Shown piece by piece: positions 2,993-34,311 of a DNA stretch of 35,166 bases. The DNA comes from Eledone cirrhosa (lineage: Eukaryota). The DNA lies in assembly GCA_964016885.1 (NCBI GenBank), contig CAXHJY010000169.1, positions 1 to 35,166 of the forward strand. The letters run 5' to 3'. Made by a program: the position numbers and the translations under genes. Numbering within the stretch: position 1 is the first letter of the stretch; each line of letters begins with the position of its first letter. Below the pieces are notes generated by a model. It searched no databases and was not told the DNA's origin. It saw nothing but the letters and a program-made list of their open reading frames with translations.

Positions 2993-3377
2993 TATATAAA
3001 TGGAATAGAATGAAACGAAATTTCATTTCTCACTCTTTGTTTGTTTACAAACAAATAAACCGAGCACTATAATAAATGTAAACCGATACGTGCATATATA
3101 TATATATATATATATATCTGTGCATGTGTGTATATACATACATACTACTGTACGTCTGTATACATATATGTATGTACGTTTACATACATACTTACATTTA
3201 AGTACGTGCCGTACTAAGAGTGAGAAATGAAATTTCGTTTCATCCTATTCCATTTATCGTTTTCGGTTTGCCCAGCCGACTGAACTCACTCGATGTGCAA
3301 ATTAGGCTGCTCGGCCGTTAATAAGAATTAGGAAAGTATATACTTTCAGAAGTTCAACCATCTGGCAGGAATGTATA

Positions 3378-3418
3378 CGATGCTGAGGATAGCTAATAAG
3401 CTTGAAACTAGTAGATCG
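3378..3418 (+). ncRNA. Minimal type I hammerhead ribozyme, copy 1
   Basis: cgatg-CTGAGGA-t-AGCT aata AGCT-t-GAAAC-ta-GTA-gatcg; palindromic stem III ACTAGT; one mismatch at the first pair of stem I. Confidence 0.75.
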
Positions 3419-3825
3419 ATCGTGTGTCAGTGTTGAACAAAAATGTGACGTGGTTGCCTAAACACTGTCTGGCGTAATTTGGGCTGTTTGTTTGTTTACA
3501 AACAAACAAATCGAGCATTATAATAAATGTTCGGTAAACCGATACGTGCATACATATATATGTGTGCATGTGTGTATATATATACATACTACTGTACGTC
3601 TGTATACATATATGTATCTACGCATACATATATACATACTTACATTTAAGTAAGTACCGTACTAAGAGTGAGAAATGAAATTTCGTTTCATTCTATTCCA
3701 TTTATCGTTTTCGGTGCGCCCGACCGACTGAACTCATTCGATATACAAATTAAGCTATTCAGCCGTTAATATGCATAAGGAAAGTATATACTTTTAGACG
3801 TTCAACCATCTGGCAGGAAGGTATA

Positions 3826-3866
3826 CAATGCTAACGATAGCTAATAAGCGTGAAACTAGTACATCA
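3826..3866 (+). ncRNA. Minimal type I hammerhead ribozyme, copy 2 (G5A, probably inactive)
   Basis: caatg-CTAACGA-t-agct aata agcg-t-GAAAC-ta-GTA-catc. Confidence 0.65.
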
Positions 3867-4084
3867 TTCCTGTGTCAGTGTTGAACAAAAAGGTGACGTG
3901 GTTGCCTAAACACTGTACGGCGTAATTCGAGCTGTTAGTTTGTTTACAAACAAACAAACCGAGCATTATAATAAATGTTCGGTGAACCGATACGAGCATA
4001 TATATATGTGTGTATATATATATACAAACTACTGTACGTCTGTATATATATATGTATGTAAGTATACATACATACCTACATTTA

Positions 4085-5648
<1,564 letters not shown>

Positions 5649-5650
<2 letters not shown>

Positions 5651-8600
5651 CATCTGCACCGTTTTACGTCCTTTCTTCCACGCTAGCATGGGTTAGACGG
5701 GTTGTCCTGTTGTGGGCAGTCTCTGGTCGGCTGACCATGCCTTGTCCATACAGGAACTGATTTGGCTTGATTTCTACAGCTGGATGCCCTTAATAACACC
5801 AACCTCATTTACACTGAGTGCTGGGTGCTTTTTCGTGGCGCCTACACGTCCATTTTACAGTGTGGGCTGGGTGCTTTTTTGCCTTGGTACCTCCACGACC
5901 ACCTTGCAGTGGGAGGGTGTGGGGGCATATTGTCTATATGCTTCAGCTTGTACCCATGGGAGGTTGGGTACTCTGTATTATGCGTGACACCAGAGGTCAC
6001 GGTCATGTGTCATCGCCTTGGAGACGTGTAATTGGGTAAGGTCGGCTTTATCACCTCATTCCATGTCATCTTGGGTCTCCCCACTCCGCGGTTTCCATCG
6101 ACTTCTAGTGCTCTGCACCTTTTTGTGCAGCTGTCATCCTTCGTACGCATCACATGTCCATACCAACGCAACCGCCTCTCCTGCACACAGAATTTGATTC
6201 CTCTCATGCTCAGTCTCTCTCTCAATTCATTATGCTTTGTCGGTCGCGTATATTACTATTACACATCCATCGGAGCATGCAGGCTTCGTTTCTCTCTAAT
6301 CTACGTAAGTCTTCCACCTTCAATACCCAGGTCTCACTACCATGTAACATTGCTGTTCGGATACACGCATCGTACAGTCTGCCTTCCAATTTGAGGGAGA
6401 AGCCTTTTGCAGCTAGCAGTGGCAGTAGTTCCCTGAACTTCTTCCATCCTGTTCTTACTCTAGTTATTGTACTTTCTGAACACCCACCTCCGCTGCTATT
6501 TCGGTCACCTAGGTAGCAGAAGCTGTCTACTGTCTCTACAGAGCCCTCCCAGAGATTGGTGGTACTTGTTTCCTGTGGCTGTTTGCTGCTTGCTGTCCCA
6601 GTACAGATGCTGCATGTGAAGCCTACATTCTTAATTACGCTTCCTGAGATCCCGCTACATCTCTTGTGTACCCATTGTTTGCATTTGGGGCAGAGAATGG
6701 AGTTCCTACCTACACCTTTCCTACATACTGAGCAAGGCCATATCCCTGAGGGGATCTGGGTTCTGTTTTCTCGTCTACTTACAAAGACCTTAGTCTTTGT
6801 CATGTTGACTTTGAGACCCTTTCTTTCTAGTCCCTGCTTCCAAGTTTGGAATTTCTCCTCTAGTTCTACCATAGATTCGGCTATAAGTGCGAGGTCATCT
6901 GCATACAGGAGTTCCCATGGGCATCCGGTCTTAAACTCCTCCCTTATTGCCTGCAGGACTATGATAAACAGGAGAGGGCTAAGAATAGAGCCCTGGTGGA
7001 CACCAACCTGTACGCTAAATTCCTCGCTATACTCATTGCTAATCCTAACTTTGCTGACGGCTCCCCTATACATGGCTTGTACAGCTTTCACAAGCCATTC
7101 ATCTACTCCTAGTTTTCTAAGAGCCCACCAGATTACAGCACGTGGAACTCTGTGAAAGTCTTTCTCGAGATCGACGAATGCCATGTAGAGTGGCTTACTT
7201 TTAGCTATGTACTTTTCCTGTAACTGCCTCACAAGGAAGAGGGCATCAGTGGTGCCTCTTCCTGGTACAAACCCAAATTGCATCTCATCTAGTCCCTAAT
7301 CAACTGTGCTATAACTCTTTCTGTTACTTTCATGACATGGTCCATCAGCTTTATGCCTCTATAGTTTCCTCTATTGAATGCATCACCTTTACCTTTGTAG
7401 CAGTTGACAATGATGCTACTGCACCAATCTTTTGGTATGGCCTCTTCTAGTATTACCTGGTTAACAATACGTGTGGTTATAGTGTGCCTACAGACCCAGA
7501 TGCTTTCAGCATATCGGCAGCTATACCTGATGGATCGGTTGCCTGCCTCATCTTCATATCTTTGATTGCCTTACTTACTACGCTGCTGCTGGCTTGTACT
7601 GCTGGCACCTCTATAGGGTCTACTTGGGGTAGGGTCTCTTCTTCCCATGCATTCTCCTCATTTAGTAATCTATCATAATGACTTTTCCATGCATCTTTCT
7701 TCTCAGCACTTGTGAGGCAAGCTCACCTTTATCATTCCGGATACACTTCTCTCCAATGACATCATAATTCTCTCTGACACACTGCCTCACAATCTTGAAC
7801 ACCTCCTGTTTCTGTTCCTCTCGTTGCAAAACATGCTTGAATTTTCTATCCTCTGCTTCCCTCCTAGCTAAGTATACTTGTCGCCTAGCTTCCTTCTTGG
7901 TCTCTATGCAATGTAACCTGCTCCCCCTCTTCTTCCATTCTTTCCATGCCGGTCTCTTGGCCTTAACTGCCTCATCTACCTTATTGTTCCACCACCAATT
8001 CACTTTCCTCCTGCTTGTGGTCTTACTCCAGCCACAGACCTCATCCGTCGCCTCTAGTAAGTTATGTTTTAGGAACTCTCAGTGCTCTTCTACGTTGAAT
8101 GTCTCTATCTGTTCTTCTCTACTGTCGTAGGCGTTGAGTAAAATATCTTTAAATCTGTTACTAGCTGAGGGGTCTTTCAGCTTCCAAATCTTTCTTCTCC
8201 AGGTTGGCCTCTGTTTCCAGGTTTGTCTAGTTCTGAACGTGAGGTTGCTGACAACTAAGCTATGTTGGGAGGTACATCCCTCACTAGGGAAGGCTTTTGT
8301 GTTTACGACCGTCCATCTGTCACGTCCTCTGATGAGGATAAAATCTATCTGACTGGAATTCTCCCCTGATCTATAGGTGATCAGGTGGTTGTCGGGTTTT
8401 TTGAAGTTTGTGTTACATATCGACATGTCATTGGCATCGCAGAATTCTAGAAGTCTGAATCCTTCTTCATTTCTTGTGCCAACCCCATGGCCTCCATGGA
8501 CTATATTGAAGCCATCACAGTGTTTACCTACGTGTCCGTTAAAATCTCCTGCAGTGATTAGGAAGTCATTGTCGTTTGTTAGAGCAGTAGTGTTCATTAG

Positions 8601-9135
8601 GGTCTCGTAAAATCTATCCTTAAGTTCGTCTGGAAACCCCGATTGGGGTGCGTACGCTGATATTATTGTGGTAATTGTTTTATTCAGGACTAGTCTGAGT
8701 TTAATGATTCTTGCATTTACCCTGTACACTGAGATTACTTTATCTACCCACTTGTCAGCTAATAGTATACCTACACCACCCATCCCATCGTCATTTACCA
8801 CCCAGAAAAATTTGAAGCACTGACTTTGTCCTAAAAGGACTCTAGCAGACTCTCCTCTCCATCTAGTCTTTTGCACACAGCATACATCAATTTCCTTTCG
8901 CTCTAGCATTTCTACGATTTCTCCTGCTCTTCCTTTCATTATGCTTACATTGATGGTACAAACTCGGAGTTTTGGGCATTTGTCGACACTCGTAGGGAAG
9001 GGTCGATTTTTGCAAGAGTGTGTGTGTGCTTCCTCTCTCTGGATTGGGGCTTCACATGGGTGCTTGGTAGCTCGCGGATTCATAATCATTTCATCTATTA
9101 ATTCAGAGTTGCTCCAATTTATTCTCAGCTCATCC

Positions 9136-9263: not shown

Positions 9264-9432
9264 AATGGACACACTAGAAGAGGAAGACCAAGGTTAACAT
9301 ATGTTGATGCCCTAAGGACAGACACTGGTCTGTTAGAGATGCAGGATATGGCAGCGATAATGAGGGACAGAGACCGCTGGAGAGGACTCGTCCATGGATC
9401 TCGGGAATTTTACCCGCCTTAGATAGATAGAT
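9264..9432 (+). mobile_element. C-terminal fragment of a different RTE-like LINE with (TAGA)n tail
   Basis: [22 protein letters not shown]...[11 protein letters not shown]...* is typical of RTE C-termini, followed by tagatagatagat. Confidence 0.75.
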
Positions 9433-12265
<2,833 letters not shown>

Positions 12266-12399
12266 CGTTATTCCGGGTTGAATCGGAGGTAACCACAGTA
12301 AGTAAGGTACTCAATACATAGCAGAGTATAACAGTTTTAATATAGATGAGATTCTACAGGACTAGAACTGTTTCATTCATTAGAAATCATCAGGAATCA

Positions 12400-12400
<1 letters not shown>
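12266..12400 (-). mobile_element. 135-bp hammerhead-bearing insert inside (TA)n
   Basis: Flanked by TA arrays on both sides; related rearranged copy at 29224-29345. Confidence 0.75.
12350..12398 (-). ncRNA. Type I hammerhead ribozyme, fully canonical core
   Basis: Minus strand GATTC-CTGATGA-t-TTC taat GAA-t-GAA-ACAG ttctagtc CTGT-A-GAATC: 5-bp stem I, 3-bp stem II, 4-bp stem III, GUA cleavage site (A at 12355). Confidence 0.85.
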
Positions 12401-13150
<750 letters not shown>

Positions 13151-15591
13151 ATCATCATCATCATCATCATCATCATCATTTTACGTCCGCTTTTCCCTGC
13201 TTGCAAGGGTGGTACGGGTCTTATTCAGCACAGCATCTCTCCACTCGTCACGGTCCCTCGTCATCTCCACCGTGAGCTTCAATGATCTGAGGTCTGTTCT
13301 CACCACCTCCGCCCATGTTTTTCATGGTCTACCTCTACCACGTCTTCCCTCAACTGACATTTCCTGGCACTTCTTCACCCATCGGTCATCCTCCATGCGC
13401 ATCACATGTCCATACCACCTCAGTCTCCTCTCCCGTACACTACATTCTATCCCTCTCAGACACAGTTTCTCTCCCAACACATTTATTCTGGGTCGTTCAC
13501 GCACATTTACACTGCACATCCAACGGAGCATGCTTGCCTCATTTCTCTCCAGCCGTCGCATATCCTCTGCGGTTGCTGCCCATGTCTCACTACCATGCAG
13601 CATCGCGCTCCTCACACAGGCATCATACAACTGGCCTTTCGTACGCAGGGAGAAACCCTTCTTCGTCAACAGAGGAAGCAGCTCCCTAAACTTCTTCCAA
13701 CCCGTCCTTATTCTAGATACTATGGCCTCGGAACACCCTCCTCCCATGCTAATCTGATCTCCTAGGTACCGGAAGCTATCCACCACTTCTATAGTGCCCT
13801 CTCGCATTTGAAAAATGTGTCTATCTGTGCGACTTCTACTGTCTAATTTCCCTGTACATCTACTGCATACATATTTCTCCCTACCTGTTAGTTTGCCTGC
13901 TATCCCGCTACATCTCTTGTGTACCCAGGACCTGCATTGTGTGCATTTTATAGAGTTTATGCCAGTTCCTTTTCTGCATATCGAACATGGCCATTTCCCT
14001 GACGGAATCAGGGTTTTGTCCTCTTTTCTACTCATCAACACTTTTGTCTTAGCTAGATTTACTCTCAGTCCTCTTGCTTCCAACTGCTGTTTCCATAGCC
14101 GGAATTTATTCTCTAGCTCCTCTACTGATTCTGCCATAAGAGCCAGATCGTCAGCATAGAGAAGTTCCCATGGACAGCCAGTCTTAAACTCCTCTGTTAT
14201 GGCTTGGAGGACTATAATGAACAAGAGCGGGCTGAGGACCGAACCCTGATGTACTCCTACTTGTATCTGGAATTCCTCACTAAACTCCATTCTTACCCTG
14301 ACTTTACTGAGAGTACCTCTGTACAAGTTTGCACTGTCCTCACAAGCCATTCCTCAACACCCAGCTTCCTTAGGGACCACCAGATGACAGATCGGGGTAC
14401 CCTATCAAAGGCCTTCTCTAGGTCAACAAAGGCTAAGTATAGTGGCTTATTCTTCTCTAAGAACCTCTCTTGCATTTGTCTCACCAAGAAGAGGGCATCT
14501 GTTGTACTCTTCCCAGGCACAAAACCAAACTGCATCTCATCTAGTTTGACCCTTTCTCTAATTAGTTGTGCTAAAATCCTTTCTGCCACTTTCATAACCT
14601 GATCTATCAGCTTTATACCCCTATAATTGCTCCTCTCCAAAGCATCCCCTTTACCTTTGTAGCAATTTATGAGAATACTGCTGCACCAGTCTTTGGGTAT
14701 GACACCACCATATATAGCCTGATTGATGATGCGTGCAACCAGTTTAGTGCCTACGTCCCCTGATGCCTTCAGCATCTCAGCAACTATTCCCGATGGTCCG
14801 GCCGCCTTACCATTTTTCATTTCCCTAATCGCCTCTTGGACCCTATATTCGTCAATCTCAATAGCTGGTCCCTCTGTCGGATCTACCAAGGGTAATTTCT
14901 CTCTCTCCCATTCGTTCTCCACATTCATCAGTCTCTCATAATGACATTTCCAGGCCTCCTTTTTCTGGTCATTCGTGACACTAAGTACACCGGCATCATC
15001 CCGGACACATTTATCACCAACAACATCCTGATTTGCATTGACACACTGCCTTGCAATGTGGAACACCGCACGCCTCTGATCTTCCCGTCGCAGAACATTG
15101 GCAAACTTCCTACTCTCTGCCTCCCTGCGATCTAAGTACACCTGACGTCTAGCTTCTCTCTTAGTGGCTGTATATTCTTCCCTACTCCCACCCTTTTTCC
15201 AAGCCTTCCATGCTAGTCTTTTGTCTCTAATAGCCTTATCTACTGTGCTGTTCCACCACCAGGTCACTCTCTGTCTGGTTGGAGCTCTGCTCCAGCCACA
15301 GGTTTCATCAGTAGCCTGCAGCAAGTTGTCACGTAAGAACTTCCAGTTATTATCTATGTCATACGTCTCTAAATCGTCTTCTTTTTCGTCATATACATCT
15401 TGAAGGGCTTTCCTAAATTTGAATTTTAGTGAAAGTTCTTTTAGCTTCCAGACCTTTCTTCTCCACACCTTCCTATATGTCTCATTCCATCTCTTGCTTA
15501 CTGAGATATCACTAACAACTAACCTATGCTGTGGGGTACATTCTTCCCCAGGATATGCCTTGGTATTAGACACTATCTGCCTGTCCCGCTG

Positions 15592-16056: not shown

Positions 16057-16095
16057 TGAACAAGTACTTTCATGCTTTCGCAATCTGCAGGTTCA
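16057..16095 (-). ncRNA. Minimal type I hammerhead (core CTGCAGA, A6C)
   Basis: TGAAC-CTGCAGA-t-TGC gaaa GCA-t-GAA-AGTACT-T-GTTCA. Confidence 0.7.
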
Positions 16096-16139
16096 ATTCT
16101 GTGGTGACAGTCAAGTTTGCAATTTTCAACCACAGAATA

Positions 16140-16178
16140 TGAACTTGAAGATTGCGAAAGCATGAAAGTACTTGTTCA
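16140..16178 (+). ncRNA. Minimal type I hammerhead (core TTGAAGA, C3U)
   Basis: TGAAC-TTGAAGA-t-TGC gaaa GCA-t-GAA-AGTACT-T-GTTCA; the two arms together imply an ancestral CTGAAGA. Confidence 0.75.
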
Positions 16179-16342
16179 ATTAACACTTAACATTTAATAT
16201 TCTACCATACTATTTCATTCTAATACCATTATACATTTTAAAGGATTGTAAATAAAACGAGTAAATCAGACAAAGTTGAAATTCCTTTTATTAATATAAT
16301 CTTCTATACACAATCTTACACACCCGTGTATATTTATCTATA

Positions 16343-16647
16343 TCATCATTTCATCATTTCAGTTTACGTCCGCTTTTCCCTGCTTGCAAGGGTGGGACGG
16401 GAACTGATTCTTCAACCTCATTTACAGTGAGTGCTGGGTGCTTTTTTTGCCGTGGCTCCTCCACGACCATTTTGCAGTGGAATGATATGGACCCAGTCCC
16501 TATCATCTCATTTCTACAGCTGAGTAAACTGGAGTAATGTGAAATAAAGTTCCCTGCTCAAGGAAACAACACATCACCCGGTCAGAATTGAACTCACAAC
16601 CTTTCGATTCCAAGGCCAATGCTCTAACCACTAAGCCATGTGCCTCC
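16343..16647 (-). mobile_element. tRNA-derived SINE with CORE-like central domain and RTE-derived 3' tail
   Basis: A box TGGCTTAGTGG, B box GAGTTCAATTC, gtttccttgagcaggga, tail cccttgcaagcagggaaaagcggacgtaaa plus GAT repeats. Confidence 0.85.
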
Positions 16648-17071: not shown

Positions 17072-17410
17072 ATCATCATCATTTCATTTTACGTCCGCTT
17101 TTTCCCTGCTTTCAAGGGTAGGACAGAAACTGATTCTGGCTTCAATTCTACAGCTGGATGACCTTCCTAATACCAACCTCATTTTCAGTGATTGCTGGGT
17201 GTTTTTTTGCCGTGGCACCGCCACGACCACTTTGCAGTGGAATGATATGGACCCCAGTCCCTATCACATCAGTTCTACAGCTGAGTAAACTGGAGCAATG
17301 TGAAATAAAGTGTCTTGCTCAAGGAAACAACACATCACCCGGTCTGAGAATTGAACTCACAACCTTTCGATTGCAAGGCCAATACTCTAACCACTAAGCC
17401 ATGTGCCTCC
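17072..17410 (-). mobile_element. Second copy of the same tRNA/CORE-like/RTE-tail SINE
   Basis: Nearly the same as 16343-16647, with ~35 extra bp (ctacagctggatgaccttcctaatacc). Confidence 0.87.
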
Positions 17411-18308: not shown

Positions 18309-18512
18309 GCCATCGCCCTATTTTGACTAAAGAAATTAAAGAAATTATTTAGCCTGATAGTGCGGTTAAGAACCCTCGGAGAAATGGAAAAAGATGAGTA
18401 TTGACGTACATGTACCTCAATACTCATCTTTTTCCATTTCTCCGAGAGTTCTTAACCCCACTATCAGGCTAAATAATTTCTTTAATTTCTTTAGTCAAAC
18501 TACGGCGATAGC
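18309..18512. repeat. 204-bp near-perfect palindrome with no spacer
   Basis: Centre gtaca|tgtac at 18410/18411; arms complementary with a few mismatches. Confidence 0.95.
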
Positions 18513-20091: not shown

Positions 20092-20287
20092 TTAATATAA
20101 AGAATGATGGGCTTATGCTCAGAGATGTTATAAAATAGCTTATAAAATAGGGTGAAGACCCTTAAAAGATGGAAAAGAATTTAGTAGTTGTTAGCAACTT
20201 CTTTTTCTTTCTTTTAAGGGTCTTCACCCTATTTCATATGCTATTTTATTGCATCTCTGTGCATGACCCCATCATTCTTTATATTAA
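20092..20287. repeat. Inverted repeat (~90-bp arms); the arm sequence recurs at 32963-33061
   Basis: ttaatataaagaatgatggg...aaatagggtgaagacccttaaaaga versus tcttttaagggtcttcaccctattt...cccatcattctttatattaa. Confidence 0.88.
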
Positions 20288-29194: not shown

Positions 29195-29223
29195 ATAATA
29201 TATTTATATGTGTGTGTGTAGTA

Positions 29224-29345
29224 GATCCAGAATTAAATTGGGAGTAATCACAGTAAATAAGGTACTCAATACACTAGTAGAGTGTAAACATCATTAATTC
29301 ATATAGAATGAAACTGTTCTGTTCCTGTAGGAGCCATTTCTAGAG
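29224..29345. mobile_element. Rearranged relative of the 12266-12400 insert with an inverted hammerhead 3' half
   Basis: cacagtaaataaggtactcaataca matches ~12295-12318 on the same strand, while gaatgaaactgttctgttcctgtag (29306-29330) matches the hammerhead strand of 12354-12378, i.e. is flipped. Confidence 0.75.
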
Positions 29346-30574
29346 TAAATATATGTATGTATATATATATATAGTATAAATAGAGTATTAAGAAACACTA
29401 GGCAAAAAGAGATATATAAATTTGATACGTTTAACACTTCTAATGTGCAATCTTCTTCATATTCTAGCGAGAAATATATCAGTGTCTAACTGTTAAATAA
29501 ATGGCAGGGAATTAACAGATGTTACTGTCTGAGATGTTGCAGAAGTGTATTCAAAGTTCCATGGTTTATTGACATAGTAGTGCTAATAATGATAAAATAA
29601 ATTTTGATAATATGAATGCTATCTAAATTGTTCTATTAACCAACTTTTAAGTACCACCAGATCTTGCCAGTAAATACATAAAACATCTAACTACTCAAAG
29701 ATTGTTAGTTCTTCTTAGCTGATTAAATGATGTAATCAATCATTGATATTTCTAGCCATAGACAGCCCCTTTTTATTTTCAGGAACACTAAACTAAGATT
29801 TAGGATTTTACCATATGATCTATATTTAAAAAATGGTCAGTTGTTTGTTAAAGGTGATTTGATTGCATCACAGATCATCACAGATCAGGTTATGCAATGA
29901 AACAAGAGCTGCATTGCATTCCTCATATTAGTTATATGTCAATATTTGGAAAGAATTATATCAACAATGATACAAAAGCATCAGACTTTTCAATTAAATG
30001 CAAAACTTTACTGCTGACAAAACCATAACATAAGGCAGTAGAAGTTATAAACATCAAAAATGGAGAATTTGAGAAATAATATTAGGCATACAAATCTCAA
30101 TTAATAATACATTTAATCTGTTCTGAGTTAAACTTGTGTCAAAAGAACGTGTGGATTTAAATTTCATTCTTAAAATACTACTTCAGGAGATATTGATGAT
30201 ACATACAACACATTTTTTTATAAGAAATCAATAGATTAACTAAAAGAAATCAAATTTACAAAATAACAACATAAAATTTAGTATCTCAGAAACAATTGAA
30301 AAATGTCTAGTAATCATGAAAGTAATTTTAGTTTTTAAAATGTAAAACATACCAATGAATGAAAACTATATTTAAACAGCATCCCATGTTCATTCATTCA
30401 CATACATATATAAGAACAGATGTTTATATTTAGAAAAACAAAGGAGAGCATATATTTTGTTTATATATATATATAGTGGTAGAACACTGGAAGGTAATAT
30501 CTGTAGTGGGAGAGCACTCATTCCATGGGACGAGTTAGGTAGAAGTGGTTACACAACAGCTAGTTCACCATACC

Positions 30575-30610
30575 GAGAACAATTGTTTCACCTTAGCGGA
30601 TCCTCAGCTC
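30575..30610 (-). ncRNA. Minimal type I hammerhead ribozyme, intact core
   Basis: GAG-CTGAGGA-t-CC gctaa GG-t-GAA-ACAATTGT-T-CTC. Confidence 0.8.
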
Positions 30611-30622
30611 ATAATGCATTAC

Positions 30623-30658
30623 GAGCTGAGGATCCGCTAAGGTGAAACAATTGTTCTC
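30623..30658 (+). ncRNA. Minimal type I hammerhead ribozyme, intact core
   Basis: GAG-CTGAGGA-t-CC gctaa GG-t-GAA-ACAATTGT-T-CTC; GUU site ends 30655; palindromic stem III. Confidence 0.8.
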
Positions 30659-30687
30659 AGTATGGTGAACTAGCTGTTGTGTAACCA

Positions 30688-30762
<75 letters not shown>

Positions 30763-33760: not shown

Positions 33761-34311
33761 TTATAGGCTAGAAAATAATTTTAGCCAGTGTTTCAAAACA
33801 TTATCATTTTCATCTTTTATCTGTAATGTTCTCAAGTGCATATTTCTCTTTTAGGATAATACTGTCAGCCGGGGCCATTTGGTATGTGCACAGAGACAAA
33901 CTCTTCAGAAATACATAGATGGAGTGTTCCAAATATTGATGTCACACGGATTTCGGTTGAAAAGCTGTTATTTCTTGTATAACAAATACAACTATCAATT
34001 TAGTCTATCATGAGGATCATTCTGCCAAATTACCTTGTTTAAGAAGTGGAAGAGATAATTGATGCTGTATTGCATCTTTGGCAAAAGAGAGTATATGGTG
34101 TAAAGAGAAGTACTTTCTTCTTCAGCTAAGTCCTTGTCAAACTCTTCAAATTTCACTTGGAAAAGAAGGTAAGATATACAAAAATAACCAACAGGAACAG
34201 ACCTACTCACAACATACATATACAGACTAGAGAATACAATAATGAGATGGCACTTTGACAACTGTGTTAAGAGTGCATGGGTTTGTGGAATACTCAGCCA
34301 TTTACACATTG

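Follow-up and report, generated by a model that had tools for sequence, protein, structure and literature searches.

A hammerhead motif in a TA-rich array of Eledone cirrhosa probably marks a promoterless 5'-end copy of a Hydra-type Penelope-like element

Results

A type I hammerhead in an island of a TA array

The window analysed here is a stretch of 35,166 nucleotides from Eledone cirrhosa (contig CAXHJY010000169.1). A 135-bp island at 12266-12400, lying inside a (TA)n-rich array, carries a hammerhead motif on the minus strand. The features of the locus are as follows.

9423..13152, no strand: (TA)n-rich array and insertion target; 3,730 bp, 94% A+T outside the island
12266..12398, minus: 5' end of a Hydra-type Penelope-like element, with hammerhead and leader/tail; spans +2 to +134 of the element and matches locus L184 at 132 of 133 bases
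12399..12400, minus: 5'-terminal junction bases of the copy, absent from the parent, which has A+1 there; aligned with L184 by eye
12331..12340, minus: internal end points +60 and +69, where in sister copies the short partner arm meets (TA)n
12350..12398, minus: type I hammerhead, from sequence, fold energies and family variation
12398-12394 and 12354-12350, minus: stem I, 5 bp, GAUUC/GAAUC, from sequence
12393-12387, minus: core CUGAUGA, from sequence
12374-12372, minus: core GAA, from sequence
within 12350..12398, minus: stem II, 3 bp (UUC/GAA) above a U·U, loop UAAU, from sequence
12371-12368 and 12359-12356, minus: stem III, 4 bp, ACAG/CUGU, with the 8-nt loop UUCUAGUC, from sequence
12354..12355, minus: predicted cleavage site after A12355, GUA triplet, element +45/+46, from sequence
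12356..12371, minus: helix III segment, an imperfect 16-nt palindrome with central CUAG, from duplex energy

In minus-strand order the motif reads GAUUC, CUGAUGA, U, UUC-UAAU-GAA, U, GAA, ACAG-UUCUAGUC-CUGU, A, GAAUC. Since a strict descriptor (stem I of at least 5 bp, stem II of at least 3 bp, stem III of at least 4 bp) matched once in the window, against a mean of 0.0 in 200 shuffles of its 25,482 non-microsatellite bases, the hammerhead is not a chance occurrence. It has the CUGANGA, GAAA and UH core around three helices, with helix I open, which places it in type I. Rereading the sequence confirmed what an earlier sequence-only reading had reported, namely the intact core, the GUA site with a cut after minus-strand A12355, a true 4-bp stem III with an 8-nt loop, and an island within about 3.7 kb of (TA)n. 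Stem III is longer than in the neighbouring minimal motifs. That reading had also called the motif canonical, which does not hold. A canonical animal type I hammerhead has a helix I of 6 bp, a helix II of 4 bp, a G10.1-C11.1 pair and a contact between loop 1 and loop 2, whereas here stem I has 5 bp and no partner loop for such a contact, and stem II has 3 bp and stands on a U·U in the place of G10.1-C11.1. Rfam returned no hammerhead at gathering score in the window and none at E<=10 in 171 bases; the sole Rfam match in the window was a SINE-like tRNA at 16581-16638.

Neighbouring elements and host gene context

Other hammerheads occur in the window. The one at 3383 has the perfectly palindromic helix III ACUAGU and a U·U as in the island; the copies at 3383-3420 and about 3829-3870 lie in a 448-bp two-copy tandem (3110-4079) with retrozyme-like spacing, the second core being damaged. 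Two hammerheads at 30626 (plus) and 30607 (minus) have the perfectly palindromic helix III ACAAUUGU, the U·U of the island and a UU site, and lie in a second family (30481-30690) with a long and a short arm head to head between TA runs and a 12-nt spacer at the joint. A hammerhead-like motif with a 6-bp stem II and a near-palindromic AGAUUU helix III was found beside a TA run at 5197-5240, and an old, rearranged relative of the island at 29220-29345 combines the tail and a partial hammerhead in opposite orientations. Further head-to-head inverted stubs without obvious hammerhead, at 18370-18500, 20110-20280, 16060-16290 and 30586-30690, suggest more Penelope-like families.

Two decayed minus-strand LINE copies with reverse transcriptase (RT) frames, at 5650-9130 and 13150-15590, each lie beside TA arrays, and the one at 13150 adjoins the array that holds the island; we take both to be RTE-like. 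tRNA-like SINE heads are present at 16581-16638 (Rfam tRNA, 29.3 bits) and about 17340-17410. Elsewhere in the genome, a 969-codon frame (L154:1526-4432, minus) belongs to an RT + YIG element other than the island's, Asn-rich in its N-terminal part and inserted between two arms of the island's family. At L047:1400-1680, a 102-bp hammerhead unit is present three times head to tail and could be the start of a retrozyme-like array derived from the island's family.

Host genes were sought around the motif. The 87 open frames of at least 55 codons outside the two LINE bodies had no Pfam match, and a splice-signal scan gave nothing convincing. A possible host exon on the minus strand at 34034-34162 has signals resembling an acceptor and a donor, and an open frame of 43 codons; no relative was found. 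None of the sequencing runs listed was of RNA. Cutting of a host pre-mRNA by the window hammerhead is thus far unsupported. In Xenopus, retrozymes are depleted from genes according to the cited part of a preprint that concerns tandem retrozymes (10.64898/2026.07.22.740005), which suggests that active motifs can matter there.

The island is the 5' end of a Penelope-like element

The sequence-only reading had described the hammerhead as isolated and overlooked that the island is the 5' end of a retroelement; the island belongs to a repeat present in thousands of copies. Locus L184 (the parent) differs from the island at 1 of 133 bases and continues into an ORF of about 2.1 kb of the RT + GIY-YIG type, frameshifted like those of the other parent copies examined, L185 and L153. 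With the A of AGATTCC numbered +1, L184 has CCAAT at -84, TATA at -30 and the first ATG at +182. The hammerhead repeat is continuous with the RT + GIY-YIG ORF in both L184 and L185, with YRDD and YIG motifs, and sister copies show the inverted 5'-truncated partner and optional tail of Penelope-like elements (PLEs), the window copy having no partner. Two natural copies carry the Hydra motifs, RWR and DKT in L185 and CxCX5C, CxxC and CxH in L151. DKT, the CxCX5C linker, CxxC/CxH near the end, the lack of CCHH, an ORF region below 3 kb and the (TA)n target agree with the Hydra clade, RWK being RWR here. The ORF has 684 homologues, many of which carry PF26215, and a profile comparison relates it weakly (E 7e-4) to a second RT/YIG ORF in the same genome; it matched nothing in Pfam or in the PDB. 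On motifs, not on a tree, we assign the element to the Hydra clade of PLEs. The Neptune clade, suggested by the cysteine linker, was dropped for Hydra on the same motifs.

Variation within the family follows the hammerhead fold. Among 70 distinct variants the core is kept and the U·U is present in 65, stem II is UUC/GAA in 51, and loop II varies over 19 forms. The two sides of stem I covary from one subfamily to another, with AGAUUC/GAAUCU in 13 variants and GGCUUC/GAAGCC in 6. Loop III is the same in 58 of the 70, a figure partly built in because the search pattern fixed loop III in 30 loci. Judged from sequence, the motif is a genuine hammerhead with family-level support, whose self-cleavage is a prediction.

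Many copies of the repeat end at stem I, and none of 100 at the cut

The 3.0-Gb genome contains 688 candidate matches to the island (all of the 40 scored were 99-100% identical) and 218 occurrences of an exact 33-mer. We also counted 5,592 sister-subfamily hammerheads, 5,101 places where the element tail is joined to TATA, 3,463 copies with a promoter + hammerhead pattern (a TATA-like motif upstream) and 1,260 head-to-head joints lying no more than 14 nt from stem I. Short copies mostly come as head-to-head pairs. At the loci examined, the usual order is (TA)n, a short arm to about +60/+69, the joint where stem I starts, a long arm to +134 and (TA)n again. The window copy is a single long arm without partner and without promoter; 8 of 36 start-bounded copies, assessed by eye among 100 tail-anchored ones, are single as well. 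Its partner was either lost or never present. In a search for an alternate haplotype with an empty site, the unique window stretch fully matched this contig only. Contigs of four sequencing runs of unknown kind, placed on the parent 5' region, were deepest over the stretch of hammerhead and leader and had many loose ends near its start; contig depth gives no copy number and carries no weight here.

The 5' ends of the first 100 of the 5,101 tail-anchored copies, all on one chromosome and with a few duplicates (L213/L215; L285-L288), were mapped against L184. Twenty-nine copies keep the promoter, 5 end at -20 to -4, 36 at -3 to +5, 19 at +6 to +40, 2 at +44 with identical joints and 9 further in, and none ends at the cut (+46). 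Since 36 of 100 start at stem I and none at the cut, the copied RNA appears to start at stem I and to be uncut. Start site, cap and lack of cleavage are in this way read from footprints in DNA, and cut RNA may exist but go uncopied. The 3' ends of the copies lie at +134 or about +60/+69 and are joined to TA; the latter end points are likely a second priming site.

At the close joints (within 14 nt of stem I), 2,520 arm ends were examined. A G precedes AGATTCC at 788 ends and GATTCC at 253; 94 ends continue with the genomic CC, 42 have A or T, and the rest, mostly with a single T/A centre, are unclassed. The 788 ends are ambiguous, as either a cap or fold-back onto the 3' strand of stem I would give them. 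The G before GATTCC at the 253 ends is neither genomic nor explained by stem I fold-back. In the sister subfamily, a hand count among 100 rows listed, with 5 rows set aside as direct joints, found an extra G in 16 of 25 informative arms, the genomic base in 5 and another in 4. Furthermore, at least 8 of the 100 copies (L191, L198, L199, L205, L235, L249, L262 and L266) have a partner arm that extends past the long arm's 5' end into upstream sequence, which favours separate priming of the two arms, a pattern that later deletion can mimic.

The hammerhead is predicted to favour a dimer

Folding was evaluated with ViennaRNA nearest-neighbour energies, which are computed without Mg2+ or tertiary contacts. 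Helix III reaches -1.4 kcal/mol as a hairpin versus -12.8 as a two-strand duplex, 12 of the 16 positions of the segment pairing with a second copy. For the isolated 49-mer, the active monomer has -3.7 kcal/mol versus a minimum of -5.6 and takes up about 1% of the ensemble. With 30 or more native 3' bases, its probability is about 1e-5, because ACAGUU pairs with a downstream AACUGU and buries the cut site; for an equal length of the parent L184, which has A at that position, it is about 1e-3. As an active dimer, the 49-mer has -17.4 kcal/mol versus -11.2 for two folded monomers. When loop III was permuted, 12.5% of 840 permutations dimerised equally well, the loop palindrome alone being not significant. 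When 3' flank is included, the active dimer lies 4-6 kcal/mol above the unconstrained one, and in the window copy the flanked active dimer (-40.8) does not improve on two monomers in their minimum-energy folds (-41.4), so that even activity as a dimer is not certain. These energies predict that the hammerhead favours a dimer over a monomer.

The sequence-only reading had proposed that the longer stem III makes the hammerhead monomer-competent, so that it would cut any minus-strand transcript through it. Stem III indeed has 4 bp versus 1-2 bp in most animal type I hammerheads, and the isolated 49-mer is just 1.9 kcal/mol from its minimum-energy fold. In the literature, animal PLE hammerheads are described as cleaving weakly and as dimers, and fungal ones with a large helix III as monomers (in the cited parts of PMC4209133 and the review PMC6765202), and an axolotl hammerhead with U·U is reported to cleave by 22% in 1 h as a monomer and far more effectively as a dimer (PMC7229834, as cited). 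We nevertheless regard monomer cutting of transcripts through the window motif as improbable: the hammerhead fold is never the minimum-energy one in any context folded, with an active-fold probability of about 1e-2 alone and 1e-5 with native flank; stem I has 5 bp versus 6 in the parent and no partner loop; none of 100 copies starts at the cut; and no host exon was identified. Weak monomer cutting of trimmed RNA might occur, the energies being computed as stated above.

Discussion

Origin of the island

Our data suggest, with a probability that we put at roughly 80%, that the island, which sits in (TA)n, copies about the first 134 bases of a Hydra-type PLE without its promoter, that reverse transcription was likely primed within the RNA leader and proceeded to the 5' terminus of an uncut transcript, and that the hammerhead, a predicted dimer, is likely idle here. 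The pile-up of 5' ends at the first bases of stem I would mark the transcription start, 30 nt below the TATA. Both nicked strands of the target could then prime on sense RNA, at +134 and at +60/+69, and reverse transcription would run off at the start site of the uncut RNA. The two cDNA 3' ends would be joined head to head; in the case of the window copy, the long cDNA alone would have been fixed and joined directly to the target. Reverse transcriptases are known to add an extra C to the cDNA at a capped end, and the extra G's at the joints may be cap-templated or untemplated additions. A 3' splice site, CCCAG|ATTCC, was considered as the source of the fixed 5' end (cf. the D. virilis Penelope in the cited part of PMC4209133); this is less likely, since the G of that AG is retained in the copies, often along with the A, and since the TATA lies only 30 nt upstream. 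The start-site and run-off reading was not found in the literature searched, subscription papers and bioRxiv supplements being outside its coverage.

Two other origins of the short copies were weighed. They could be a self-propagating non-autonomous family, SINE- or retrozyme-like, in which stubs are re-transcribed from flanks or from promoter-bearing truncated copies and the island descends from another stub. Copies with promoter, hammerhead and tail and without ORF are common and would yield RNA with an identical 5' end, many of the stubs show 100% identity, and there is one head-to-tail 102-bp tandem (L047). We consider such a family unlikely, however: joint sequences vary from copy to copy and were thus formed at insertion, stubs have no TATA box, and retrozyme-type tandem arrays are rare among the loci examined. 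Transcripts of truncated copies that retain the promoter would, as templates, fit run-off at the start site too.

Alternatively, head-to-head pairs might arise by self-priming, with a single template, possibly antisense, folding back on itself, and the window copy would be a pair from which one arm was later deleted. Palindromes are prone to deletion, and some joints run into post-cut sequence, as stem I fold-back would give. Fold-back has been proposed for Penelope palindromes, the head-to-head repeats having been read as self-priming on an antisense template, with TATA/Inr motifs in the pLTRs (in the cited part of PMC3846280); the D. virilis Penelope was reported to be TATA-less (PMC2377424, as cited). 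Fold-back cannot copy sequence upstream of the long arm's 5' end, as seen in at least 8 of 100 partner arms, unless a later deletion is added, and the fixed TA-joined sites at which both arms stop and the extra G's at the joint also speak against it, which leaves it a rather small share of the probability. Priming of both strands on uncut sense RNA has a precedent in PAc, for which in vitro both strands are cut and extended and uncut RNA is used, with two internal priming sites delimiting the tail (in the cited part of PMC11167929).

Meaning of the stubs

The window locus, a single retroelement stub among thousands, is likely inert. More broadly, the stubs may be a fossil record of Penelope-type insertion, in which both strands were primed on sense RNA at two fixed leader sites, copied to a capped 5' end located exactly at helix I and joined head to head with the ribozyme uncut; we hold this wider reading tentatively, at somewhat less than an even bet. 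If true, it would account both for single hammerheads scattered through animal genomes and for head-to-head repeats ascribed to antisense self-priming, and the 5'-terminal hammerhead would be a dimer-gated switch that takes the cap off RNAs which are not serving as templates. The family is young and abundant, so that insertion joints can be counted, and such counts bear on how PLE head-to-head copies form and on hammerhead cutting before copying. The 8-nt loop III offers a natural test of the boundary between monomer and dimer. The hammerhead itself is real and its origin ordinary, and the joint statistics are the part worth following.

Comparison with known systems

Non-LTR retrozymes resemble the stubs in having a type I hammerhead in a short non-coding repeat, with a U·U in one axolotl family (PMC7229834, as cited above). 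Unlike retrozymes, which in that description are head-to-tail tandems of 150-400 nt made into circles, the stubs are single or head to head and match the 5' end of an ORF-bearing element; the window copy is single and its sister copies mostly head to head rather than in head-to-tail units. A further parallel is found in the hammerheads of metazoan PLE pseudo-LTRs, as presented in the cited sections of Cervera and de la Pena 2014 (PMC4209133), which share the type I topology, the palindromic helix III, the predicted dimer and the occurrence as dispersed singles and close opposite-strand pairs. They differ in that the hammerhead here has no G10.1-C11.1, a short stem II and a helix III that can close as a 4-bp hairpin.

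A loop III like that of the island may already be described by Lunse et al. in work on dimeric PLE hammerheads.

The green anole Poseidon element PAc (Frangieh et al. 2024, PMC11167929, in the part cited) would be similar in its AT-rich target, in the extension of both strands, in the use of uncut RNA and in two internal priming sites just downstream of the hammerhead. It belongs to a different clade, and its ORF starts within the hammerhead, whereas here the first ATG is at +182 and activity is a prediction.

The closest known systems are the Hydra-clade elements (Craig et al. 2021, PMC8557442, in the part cited), which have the short single ORF, the C-terminal GIY-YIG-type nuclease, DKT, RW(K/R), CxCX5C, CxxC and CxH, the (TA)n target, the inverted 5'-truncated partner and the optional tail. 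In the supplement (File S2), about 15 of the listed families have the ctgatgat...tgaa U·U under stem II, and Hydra-1_aMil, Penelope-1_NV and Penelope-1_SK have the acag/ctgt stem III; the hammerhead of Hydra-1_oBim, from Octopus bimaculoides, differs in sequence from the window one. Stem II has only 3 bp here and the tail 65-75 nt, not 30-40, and loop III, of 0-3 nt in the listed families, has 8 nt with a CUAG palindrome. As far as motifs tell, the element is a new Hydra-type family member with a loop III longer than in the listed families.
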